In this document: one piece after another, positions 2,521-3,807 of the stretch
How the letters are laid out: every line of letters begins with the position of its first letter
Position numbering within the stretch: position 1 is the first letter of the stretch
DNA from: Escherichia phage vB_EcoM_WL-3
DNA: 64,000 nucleotides
Direction: 5' to 3' (one strand)
Sequence record: MT968995.1
The notes under the pieces: model-generated
What the model was told of the DNA's origin: nothing
What the model saw: the letters and a program-made list of their open reading frames with translations, nothing else
Database searches by the model: none
Position numbers and translations under genes: made by a program

Positions 2521-2596
2521 TGGTCGAGGCAGTAGGGATCGAACCTACGACCTAGGACTTAGAAGGTCCTTGCTCTTCCTTCTGAGCTATGCCTCG
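2521..2596 (-). tRNA. tRNA-Arg (anticodon UCU)
   Basis: Hand-folded cloverleaf: acceptor CGAGGCA/TGCCTCG, anticodon loop CTTCTAA, T-loop TTCGATC, encoded CCA. Confidence 0.8.
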
Positions 2597-2600
2597 GATT

Positions 2601-2675
2601 TGGCGGACATGATAGGATTCGAACCTATAACCAATCGCTTAACAGGCGATCGCTCTGCCATTGAGCTACACATCC
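2601..2675 (-). tRNA. tRNA-Asn (anticodon GUU)
   Basis: Acceptor GGATGTG/CATGTCC, anticodon stem ATCGC/GCGAT, loop CTGTTAA, T-loop TTCGAAT, CCA. Confidence 0.75.
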
Positions 2676-2679
2676 AAAT

Positions 2680-2766
2680 TGGTGGGGAGTGATGGAGTCG
2701 AACCACCCGAGTCGCAATGACAATGGATTTACAGTCCACACCGCTACCTCTACGGGATAACTCCCC
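2680..2766 (-). tRNA. tRNA-Tyr (anticodon GUA), type II with long variable arm
   Basis: Acceptor GGGGAGT/ACTCCCC, anticodon loop CTGTAAA, 15-nt variable arm, T-loop TTCGACT, CCA; D-arm irregular. Confidence 0.7.
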
Positions 2767-2778
2767 TAATTCTTAATT

Positions 2779-2853
2779 TGGTGGCCCTGGGTGGAATTGA
2801 ACCACCATCTGGCGATTATGAGTCGCTTGCTTGAACCTTCCAGCTACAGGGCC
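2779..2853 (-). tRNA. tRNA with CAU anticodon (Met, or Ile if C34 is modified)
   Basis: Acceptor GGCCCTG/CAGGGCC, anticodon loop CTCATAA, T-loop TTCAATT, CCA. Confidence 0.7.
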
Positions 2854-2861
2854 AAATTTTC

Positions 2862-3347
2862 TTATTTTATGTAATATTTATTTAAAAACTTTCTAGCTTG
2901 AGTATGGCTAACATTTATAGCATTTGCATAATTTTTAATAAAACCTCGTTCATCCATATTAAAACTTTCTAATATTTTTAATCGTCTAGCTATCTCATCT
3001 TGACTTAAAGTACTTGCATTATTTTTAGAAATTTTTTCTAAGGACTGTACTGAGTGTTTTCGACCATTAAAATTAAAATTTTTAGATTTTGGAGGAAATC
3101 TATCATTTAGTCTCGCATCTTTTGTATTTTGATTATTAGTTGCGCAATATATGTTATTTAATGAGTATGGTCCTTTATCACCAAAACGGCACATACAGTA
3201 TTCATGACCCTTTCTTCCACGCTTATCATAATTTCCCGTTGATTTCCACCAATGCAACCACTCATCAAAAGTTAAATTCCATTCAATGTTTCTACGTATA
3301 GCAGAATTCCGCTGAGAAATATATTTTGCATAATCTTCTTTCATCAC
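2862..3347 (-). CDS. free-standing HNH-like endonuclease candidate inside the tRNA cluster (position of T4 segB)
   Basis: 161-aa ORF; block GHEYCMCRFGDKGPYSLNNIYCATNNQN resembles phage His-Me-finger/HNH motifs; no GIY-YIG motif. Confidence 0.45.
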   Translation of the reverse strand: MMKEDYAKYISQRNSAIRRNIEWNLTFDEWLHWWKSTGNYDKRGRKGHEYCMCRFGDKGPYSLNNIYCATNNQNTKDARLNDRFPPKSKNFNFNGRKHSVQSLEKISKNNASTLSQDEIARRLKILESFNMDERGFIKNYANAINVSHTQARKFLNKYYIK

Positions 3348-3391
3348 AAATTTCTCTACTTATTACATACACTAAGCTAAATCAGCAAAAC

Positions 3392-3481
3392 TGGCGGAGG
3401 CGATAGGATTTGAACCTATGAGTCGCCGGAGCGACTGCCGGTTTTCAAGACCGGTGCATTAAACCACTCTGCCACGCCTCC
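3392..3481 (-). tRNA. tRNA-Ser (anticodon UGA), type II
   Basis: Acceptor GGAGGCG/CGCCTCC, anticodon stem CCGGT/ACCGG, loop CTTGAAA, long variable arm, T-loop TTCAAAT, CCA. Confidence 0.8.
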
Positions 3482-3483
3482 AG

Positions 3484-3557
3484 TCTCCATACAAGGATTT
3501 GAACCTTGGACCTCCTGATCCCAAATCAGGCGCTCTACCAAACTGAGCTACACGGAG
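3484..3557 (-). tRNA. tRNA-Pro (anticodon UGG), CCA not encoded
   Basis: Acceptor CTCCGTG/TATGGAG (with GU pairs), anticodon loop TTTGGGA, T-loop TTCAAAT; 2 nt from tRNA-Ser. Confidence 0.75.
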
Positions 3558-3567
3558 TAAATTAAAT

Positions 3568-3641
3568 TGGAGCGGATAATGAGAATCGAACTCACATCAT
3601 CAGATTGGAAGTCTGAGGTAATACCATTATACGATATCCGC
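3568..3641 (-). tRNA. tRNA-Gly (anticodon UCC)
   Basis: Acceptor GCGGATA/TATCCGC, anticodon stem TCAGA/TCTGA, loop CTTCCAA, T-loop TTCGATT, CCA. Confidence 0.8.
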
Positions 3642-3646
3642 AAATT

Positions 3647-3733
3647 TGGTGCGAGAAGTGGGACTCGAACCCACAAGGAAATCATTCCGCAGCATTTTAA
3701 GTGCTGTGCCTTTACCAATTTGGCCATTCTCGC
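3647..3733 (-). tRNA. tRNA-Leu (anticodon UAA), type II
   Basis: Acceptor GCGAGAA/TTCTCGC, anticodon stem CAGCA/TGCTG, loop CTTAAAA, long variable arm, T-loop TTCGAGT, CCA. Confidence 0.8.
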
Positions 3734-3734
3734 G

Positions 3735-3807
3735 CTGGGAATAAAGGACTCGAACCTTTGCATCCTGGAATCAAAATCCAGTGCCTTACCAACTTGGCTA
3801 ATTCCCA
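3735..3807 (-). tRNA. tRNA-Gln (anticodon UUG), CCA not encoded
   Basis: Acceptor TGGGAAT/ATTCCCA, anticodon stem CTGGA/TCCAG, loop TTTTGAT, T-loop TTCGAGT. Confidence 0.75.

Follow-up and report, generated by a model that had tools for sequence, protein, structure and literature searches.

The transfer RNA (tRNA) genes at positions 2521–3807 of a 64-kb stretch of Escherichia phage vB_EcoM_WL-3 (sequence record MT968995.1) most likely belong to a T4-like coliphage (genus Tequatrovirus) tRNA operon of the phage-T2 type, comprising nine functional tRNA genes together with the small stable RNA genes rnaD and rnaC; we put the probability of this reading at roughly 0.85. The whole stretch is referred to here as the window, and all coordinates are window coordinates. 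ARAGORN, run over all 64 kb, called nine tRNA genes, all on the minus strand at 2521–3807 and none elsewhere in the window. An earlier inspection of the letters (the original prediction) had folded nine tRNAs by hand, and ARAGORN returned the same genes, coordinates and anticodons, including the Tyr, Asn and CAU candidates, all of which were called. The Rfam tRNA model (RF00005, gathering score 29) backed eight of the nine, with scores of 59.9–72 bits. In order of transcription the array reads Gln, Leu, Gly, Pro, Ser, an open reading frame (ORF) of 161 amino acids (aa), a tRNA with anticodon CAU, Tyr, Asn and Arg.

What the original prediction overlooked is that this arrangement exactly matches that of the published phage T2. 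A megablast search of the region against phage genomes matched 848 records, almost all of them T4-group phages; over the full length, phage ECO78 (97.4% identity) and phage T2 (96.9%, 100% of the query) came closest. The T2L tRNA gene cluster, deposited as a 2.4-kb EMBL entry (AJ880101), covered 97% of the query at 97.0% identity, and many Tequatrovirus phages match the first 25 kb of the window at ∼97% identity. According to their annotation, T2 and T2L (NC_054931 and AJ880101, the records compared throughout; the T4 record is NC_000866) match the window in all nine tRNAs, in their order and in their strand; both also have the ORFs trna.1 and trna.2, with rnaD and rnaC after them, and ARAGORN agrees on the tRNA set. 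The feature had thus been read correctly but is an ordinary one, which places the window among the T2-like phages of the T4 group.

The first genes of the array are tRNA-Gln (UUG; 3734–3807; 67.4 bits), 66/74 identical to its counterparts in both T4 and T2, and tRNA-Leu (UAA; 3647–3733; 64 bits; 86/87 to T4 and T2), which has a long variable arm. The 3′ end of tRNA-Gln reads CCCAG (G73) and is followed by a single C and then by G1 of Leu. Next come tRNA-Gly (UCC; 3568–3641; 65.8 bits; 74/74 to T4 and T2) and tRNA-Pro (UGG; 3483–3557; 66.8 bits; 75/75 to T4 and T2). The latter ends in GGAGA (A73), and CU separates it from G1 of tRNA-Ser (UGA; 3392–3481; 62.6 bits; 90/90 to T2), which also has a long variable arm; the 2-nucleotide (nt) gap between Pro and Ser reported previously was therefore correct, as was the lack of an encoded CCA in Pro and Gln. 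The remaining seven tRNAs encode CCA. Downstream of the 161-aa ORF lie the CAU tRNA (2779–2853; 59.9 bits), tRNA-Tyr (GUA; 2680–2766; 86/87 to T2), with a long variable arm, tRNA-Asn (GUU; 2601–2675; 72 bits; 74/75 to T2), and tRNA-Arg (UCU; 2521–2596; 68.1 bits; 75/76 to T2). Neither Tyr nor Asn is present in T4. The Arg gene is only 49/81 identical to T4 tRNA-Arg (∼60%, making it a different gene) and 58/79 identical to E. coli argU.

tRNA-Tyr was the gene not backed by the Rfam tRNA model. The match that Rfam kept within the clan was tRNA-Sec, at 34.4 bits against a cutoff of 47 for that model, and the assignment to Tyr therefore rests on ARAGORN and on the 86/87 identity to the annotated T2 tRNA-Tyr. 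We rejected the tRNA-Sec reading, which is below the cutoff, disagrees with the GUA anticodon, and is contradicted by the match to T2. The anticodon loop of tRNA-Tyr (CUGUAAA) is the same as that of E. coli tyrT, and its variable arm is 2 nt longer than the host's.

All eight positions at which tRNA-Gln differs from the T4 and T2 genes fall within the anticodon stem-loop, and the comparison with relatives reveals two alleles of this arm (3765–3781, minus strand). The window, ECO78, ime09 and P8 carry CUGGA-UUUUGAU-UCCAG, and T4, T2 and F26 carry UAGCA-CUUUGAC-UGCUA. Among the eight differing positions the stem changes are fully compensated and loop positions 32 and 38 are changed; the other 57 nt are identical. 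The loop found in the window matches that of E. coli glnU. Gene conversion, synthetase fit or nuclease evasion may lie behind the two alleles. The T2 record (NC_054931) has in addition a C-to-A change that breaks an anticodon-stem pair. A scan of IMG/VR for the two alleles recovered 2 and 0 contigs, too few to give frequencies.

The CAU tRNA is very probably a lysidine-type tRNA-Ile2 that reads AUA, the counterpart of T4 tRNA-Ile. Its best match among 5,426 E. coli genomes was an annotated tRNA-Ile (81.6% over all 75 nt), with matches present in 5,424 of those genomes, and its pairwise identity was 76.3% to K-12 ileX, compared with 63.0% to metT/metU, 60.0% to metZ, and 61.0% to T4 Ile. Its acceptor stem reads GGCCCUG/CAGGGCC, followed by A and CCA. 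It contains C4:G69 and C5:G68, the elements of lysidine identity for which the original prediction had proposed to look. Also present are U12:A23, C29:G41, A37, A38 and A73, which are identity elements for the E. coli isoleucyl-tRNA synthetase. Both acceptor-stem pairs are main determinants for recognition of tRNA-Ile2 by E. coli TilS (PMC11947777), and the host TilS would convert C34 to lysidine, leading to charging with isoleucine and reading of AUA. The 17-nt anticodon arm is identical to that of one natural E. coli tRNA-Ile(CAU) allele, and a gene identical to the window's is annotated as tRNA-Ile2 (CAT) in phage F26 (OP870145; an isotype annotation of the tRNAscan type).

Position leads to the same assignment. 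The CAU tRNA lies 1 nt after tRNA-Thr in phages P8 and ime09, like the Thr-Ile pair of T4, and because it occupies this place in relatives that keep Thr, we regard it as the counterpart of T4 Ile and not as an addition. A study of five T4-like phage genomes, T2 not among them, concluded that their CAU tRNAs were lysidine-type Ile tRNAs (Nolan et al. 2006; PMC1524935). Compared with E. coli tRNA-Ile2 (ileX/ileY), the window gene shares the CAU anticodon, the GGCCC start of the acceptor stem, A73, the GCGA-CUCAUAA-UCGC stem-loop, and 76%–82% of the sequence overall, and differs in the D-arm (GCUG GAAGGUUC AAGC) and in the T-stem sequence. An initiator tRNA-fMet was rejected, given that G1 and C72 are paired (the initiator has C1 × A72) and the anticodon stem, AGCGA/UCGCC, lacks the three G-C pairs.

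We then examined codon demand. The original prediction had proposed setting phage codon usage against host tRNA abundance; the comparison made here was with E. coli genes, using 72 non-overlapping window ORFs (19,351 codons) and 60 annotated E. coli K-12 genes (14,835 codons). The codons most enriched in the phage were AGA (6.1-fold), GGA (5.1), ATA (4.2), TCA (3.3), AAT (2.8), TTA (2.7), TAT (2.7), and ACA (2.7). If the CAU gene is Ile2, the top seven are read by seven of the nine tRNAs, and the eighth, ACA, is the codon of a lost tRNA-Thr(UGU) described below. The chance of all top seven falling within the 19 codons readable by the set is ∼1e-4. Since ATA is enriched and ATG is not (ratio of 1.0), the codon statistics independently favor the Ile2 reading. 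Tyr and Asn are also the most over-represented amino acids in the phage (4.2% vs. 2.5% and 5.8% vs. 3.9%, respectively). These data fit the classical explanation of codon supply, in which the tRNAs would serve codons much commoner in this AT-rich phage than in E. coli (AGA, GGA, AUA, UCA, AAU, UAU, UUA, CCA and CAA).

Several points weigh against a set of functional genes that supplies codons as described. The E. coli reference is a single 50-kb region, and with ORF-derived E. coli genes ACA takes rank 7 and TTA drops to rank 8. Promoter-like sites upstream of tRNA-Gln numbered seven, against 11.3 expected in shuffled sequence, and we name none of them as a promoter. Expression, processing and modification of the tRNAs are predicted from the sequence. 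The CAU tRNA has an A27/C43 mismatch where ileX has G27-U43, a mismatch shared by one natural E. coli allele. Codon supply, moreover, is not the sole role proposed for such genes, as a phage tRNA-Tyr counters a tRNA-cleaving defense (PMC13096335).

The name given to the CAU gene elsewhere is a further point of this kind. Were it an elongator tRNA-Met, the phage would have an extra Met tRNA and no reader of AUA; methionyl-tRNA synthetase would treat an unmodified CAU anticodon as Met, and ARAGORN and most public GenBank records do call the gene tRNA-Met, as do the results section of PMC2330249 and PMC13096335. We consider this very unlikely. The gene is 63% identical to metT/metU, compared with 76%–82% to tRNA-Ile(CAU); its acceptor stem begins GGCCCUG and not GGCUACG, its anticodon stem is AGCGA/UCGCC and not CAUCA/UGAUG, and it has C4:G69 and C5:G68 where E. 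coli tRNA-Met has U4:A69 and A5:U68. The phage over-uses ATA 4.2-fold and does not over-use ATG. The isotype annotation of the identical gene, the position corresponding to T4 tRNA-Ile, and the reclassification of such tRNAs in PMC1524935 all argue for tRNA-Ile2, and reading the gene as Ile2 and not Met alters any codon-supply analysis of these phages. Still less credible is the idea that some of the nine genes are pseudogenes decaying in a dispensable region. The tRNA region is not essential for phage growth (PMC2330249), single tRNA genes have been lost among relatives (Gln in OE5505, Pro in phiC600P9) and in the window itself (Thr), and tRNA-Asn has a G5-U68 wobble where T2 has G-C. Against this, eight genes score 59.9–72 bits with the tRNA model, and in all nine the stems are intact and the discriminator bases as expected; minimum free energy folding of six genes left the acceptor and T arms intact in 6/6 and gave a full cloverleaf in 5/6; and the sequences are 98.7%–100% conserved across the phages compared. 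The sole real pseudogene, the remnant of tRNA-Thr, is obvious by comparison.

A more substantial competitor to codon supply, although we still consider it the less likely explanation, is that the T2-type block retains its extra tRNAs, above all Tyr and Asn (with His in relatives), chiefly for counter-defense against tRNA-cleaving nucleases, where they would replace or out-titrate host tRNAs that have been cut. Tyr, Asn and His are tRNAs with GUN anticodons, the class cut by colicin E5, which we count in favor of this explanation. A general case for counter-defense has been made, with colicin E5 among its examples (PMC10264068). The Septu and retron-Eco7 defenses both cleave tRNA-Tyr (PMC13096335), making the window's tRNA-Tyr gene relevant to these recently described systems. 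Septu cuts tRNA-Tyr in the variable loop, extra T6 tRNA-Tyr restores infection, deletion of the tRNA-rich region of T6 sensitizes the phage, and T4, which has no tRNA-Tyr, cannot escape (PMC13096335); the variable arm of the window's tRNA-Tyr is, as noted, 2 nt longer than the host's. However, Septu cuts the T6 phage tRNA-Tyr too, pointing to protection by dosage and not by resistance (PMC13096335), and the anticodon loop of the window's tRNA-Tyr is identical to the host's. Demand alone would account for both tRNAs, given that Tyr and Asn are the most over-represented amino acids and UAU and AAU are enriched 2.7- to 2.8-fold. The two roles are not mutually exclusive.

A visible remnant of tRNA-Thr(UGU) lies at 3371–3386 (minus strand), directly after Ser. 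It was recognized by alignment with P8 and T4, where Thr is intact, and T4 blastn homology resumes at 3371. The stub consists of the first 16 nt of the gene (GCTGATTTAGCTtAGT, with one mismatch), and the rest, up to base 1 of the CAU tRNA, is replaced by trna.1, the 161-aa ORF. T2 carries the same stub, which goes unmentioned in the 2008 paper on the cluster (PMC2330249 contains neither "tRNAThr" nor "remnant"). On this comparison, Thr appears to have been lost through insertion of trna.1.

Relatives carry other forms of the array, some with Thr in place. In P8 and ime09, ten tRNA genes (Gln, Leu, Gly, Pro, Ser, Thr, CAU, Tyr, Asn and Arg) run without interruption, and an IMG/VR contig (UViG 2974787500) has an 11-gene array that includes His. 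By megablast over the tRNA-containing two-thirds of the region, the tRNA genes of these three are ∼98%–99% identical to the window's, and their Gln gene is of the window's allele; the three arrays differ in keeping Thr (with His in the 11-gene form) and in having no ORF within the array, whereas the window has trna.1 and lacks His. ECO78 and F26 share the window's arrangement but add His. Aligned in this way, the window set is the 11-gene array without His and Thr. In ECO78 the optional tRNA-His module, with a 113-nt spacer, is found at 2802–2994; it is absent from the window, where the gap between Asn and Arg is 4 nt. Two of these records need care: in that of ime09 (NC_019503) the tRNAs are annotated on the wrong strand and tRNA-Tyr is omitted, and in that of F26 (OP870145) the tRNA coordinates are shifted by 383 nt relative to the sequence.

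Other relatives have exchanged a different tRNA gene for an ORF. OE5505, which has His, carries at 700–1322 of its locus a 202-aa ORF with a weak, sub-threshold HNH match that replaces exactly one tRNA gene, Gln, and is flanked by a 7- to 8-nt Gln stub (TGGGAAT) and by the last three bases of Gln. In phiC600P9 a 202-aa GIY-YIG/NUMOD3 ORF (1205–1867 of its locus) replaces exactly one gene, tRNA-Pro. Counting trna.1 in place of Thr and segB in T4, four different swaps are seen in this one cluster.

The ORF trna.1 (2862–3347, minus strand; ATG at 3344) is a candidate free-standing homing endonuclease. We think this assignment probable; its putative nuclease domain would be of an atypical beta-beta-alpha type, for which support from the predicted fold is weak. 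It had no match in Pfam, NCBIfam, PADLOC, or PDB sequences, and its PHROG match was only to a family of unknown function. Residues 53–157 are 33% identical to the C-terminal NUMOD3/helix-turn-helix part of the phiC600P9 GIY-YIG endonuclease, the one that stands in the place of tRNA-Pro. A search of 5.8 billion proteins found 15 relatives, in which a conserved N-terminal domain of ∼75 residues is joined to different DNA-binding modules. In a confident AlphaFold (AF2) model built with that alignment (predicted local distance difference test score of 86.9), two helices precede a beta-hairpin and a further helix, and a helical C-terminal domain comes after them; the N-terminal domain is only weakly PacI-like (HNH, beta-beta-alpha), and the C-terminal domain is of the NUMOD3/helix-turn-helix type. 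The residues invariant in the family are W30, W34, R54, D57, G59, Y61, N65 and N74. No His is invariant, and trna.1 has no HNH profile match with a catalytic His.

The distribution of trna.1 resembles that of a free-standing homing gene. Versions at least 95% identical were found in only 25 phage records, compared with 848 that match the cluster region, and in T2 the ORF matches in three pieces and appears frameshifted, which suggests decay. Distant homologs (38%–58%) lie within the tRNA clusters of Klebsiella phage KP182, Aeromonas phage 31.2 and Salmonella phage S16, placing the family in the tRNA clusters of at least four Straboviridae genera (the window's and three others). Sporadic presence, replacement of the Thr target with a stub left behind, and a modular DNA-binding domain are thus all found. 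We suggest, tentatively and at somewhat less than even odds, that trna.1 represents an undescribed family of homing endonucleases that target tRNA genes and have a His-less PacI-like fold, and that swaps between endonuclease and tRNA genes (trna.1/Thr, HNH/Gln, GIY-YIG/Pro, and segB/Tyr-Asn in T4) are the main source of the differences in tRNA repertoire among T-even phages.

Downstream of tRNA-Arg, the second ORF, trna.2 (2152–2502, minus strand; 116 aa; named as in T2L), was taken from the ORF list and the T2L annotation. It belongs to PHROG 3355, of unknown function, and had no Pfam, NCBIfam or PADLOC match. It was present in all T2-type arrays examined and is not in T4, with its stop codon directly adjoining the start of rnaD. 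The label of endonuclease given to it in one GenBank record is supported by no profile search. The stable RNA genes, placed approximately by alignment with the annotated T4 and T2L genes, follow on the same strand: rnaD (species 2 small stable RNA) at ∼2036–2155 and rnaC (species 1) at ∼1891–2029. rnaC is 138/139 identical to that of T4. rnaD is 107/121 identical to that of T4 and 88/121 to that of T2L, although the adjoining tRNA block is T2-like, marking a small mosaic junction; its 3′ end is CACCG, compared with CACCA in T4. Two ORFs of 61 aa (1756–1941, minus strand) and 49 aa (1947–2096, minus strand) overlap rnaC and rnaD and are almost certainly not genes, and several ORFs listed at 2570–3877 likewise run through tRNA genes.

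A single leftward transcript (∼3900 to 1810) would presumably cover the region and be cut up by host enzymes. A pattern scan found a strong terminator-like hairpin at 1817–1840 (minus strand), with a 10-bp stem that includes seven G-C pairs, followed by a run of T, ∼50 nt past rnaC. From its position it probably marks the end of the transcription unit, although such sites are no commoner here than in shuffled sequence. In T4, Gln-Leu and Pro-Ser are made as dimeric precursors that RNase P separates, and the CCA-less member is finished by 3′ trimming and the CCA-adding enzyme. The window has the same geometry, with Gln G73, C, and Leu in one pair and Pro A73, CU, and Ser in the other, the upstream member lacking CCA in each, and because of this match to T4 we infer dimeric processing here as well. 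Cuts by RNase P at the 5′ ends of Leu and Ser would free Gln and Pro with incomplete 3′ ends, after which trimming and the host CCA-adding enzyme would finish them.

The T2-type cluster was published in 2008 (PMC2330249), and regarding phage tRNAs our analysis adds nothing beyond the literature of 2006–2008. The points that go beyond it are small: the Thr stub, the one-for-one swaps between endonuclease and tRNA genes, the trna.1 family, and the second allele of the tRNA-Gln anticodon arm.

How the window relates to T4 was only partly captured by the original prediction. The T4 cluster reads Gln, Leu, Gly, Pro, Ser, Thr, Ile, segB, Arg, rnaD and rnaC. The two phages share the Gln-Leu-Gly-Pro-Ser sub-cluster (Gly and Pro identical, Leu 86/87, Gln 66/74), the adjacency of Gln to Leu and of Pro to Ser, the absence of CCA from Gln and Pro, one Ile-type tRNA with a CAU anticodon, one Arg(UCU) tRNA, and the rnaC and rnaD genes. 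The Pro-Ser and Gln-Leu layouts are therefore common to both and have not diverged, and the Pro gene and its CU spacer are identical to those of T4. Ser differs solely at its 3′ end, which is GCCA in the window and GTAA (GUAA) in T4; a difference between T2L and T4 at the CCAG of tRNA-Ser is on record (PMC2330249). T4 thus has four CCA-less genes (Gln, Pro, Ser and Ile), whereas the window has two, with Ser and the CAU tRNA encoding CCA. The proposal that T4 has Thr and Ile where the window has Tyr, Asn and CAU stood as regards Thr, reduced to the 16-nt stub, and the added Tyr and Asn, but the "Ile" gene of T4 likewise has a CAT anticodon (ARAGORN calls it Met). On sequence comparison, the real differences from T4 are that Thr has been lost, that Tyr and Asn have been gained, and that Ile and Arg are replaced by ∼60%-identical versions (47/77, or 61.0%, for the CAU gene and 49/81 for Arg).

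These differences lie in one block. Homology with T4 (blastn) breaks at 2152 and 3371, and the 1.2 kb between (2153–3370) has no T4 homology at blastn sensitivity. The set does differ, as originally stated, but the flanks said to be near-identical are only similar, at 88.9%–97% identity outside 2153–3370 (segments >300 bp). The difference from T4 therefore appears to be a replacement of this block and not slow divergence, and it is accompanied by a visible tRNA-Thr stub beside a mobile-looking ORF. Homing endonucleases are known to reshape the region in which the block sits: segB is found there in T4, trna.1 in the window and in T2, and relatives carry other endonuclease ORFs that replace tRNA-Gln or tRNA-Pro. 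No homolog of segB was found anywhere in the window. In T2L, segB and the T4 tRNA genes that flank it were reported to be missing (Brok-Volchanskaya et al. 2008; PMC2330249). The preferred 27-bp SegB site in T2L tRNA-Asn (PMC2330249) corresponds to 2625–2599 of the window (minus strand), with a single change, C to T at position 17, which also converts G5-C68 of tRNA-Asn to G5-U68; the five positions of preference given in that paper (G6, A16, G18, A26 and A27) are all kept. Lacking segB and keeping a site that SegB prefers, the window phage would be the expected recipient in crosses with T4, and in mixed infection its Tyr/Asn/Ile/Arg block would be expected to be overwritten, as in T2L.

The closer comparison is with T2. 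DNA identity is 96.9% across the whole 1.5 kb, and the Gly, Pro, Ser and CAU tRNAs are identical. The window's Leu, Tyr, Asn and Arg genes each show single-base changes, and the anticodon arm of tRNA-Gln is another allele, with its eight changes. trna.1 is intact at 161 aa in the window, whereas in T2 it is recovered as three tblastn pieces and annotated from a later start; and the window's rnaD, in a departure from T2L, is nearer to that of T4.

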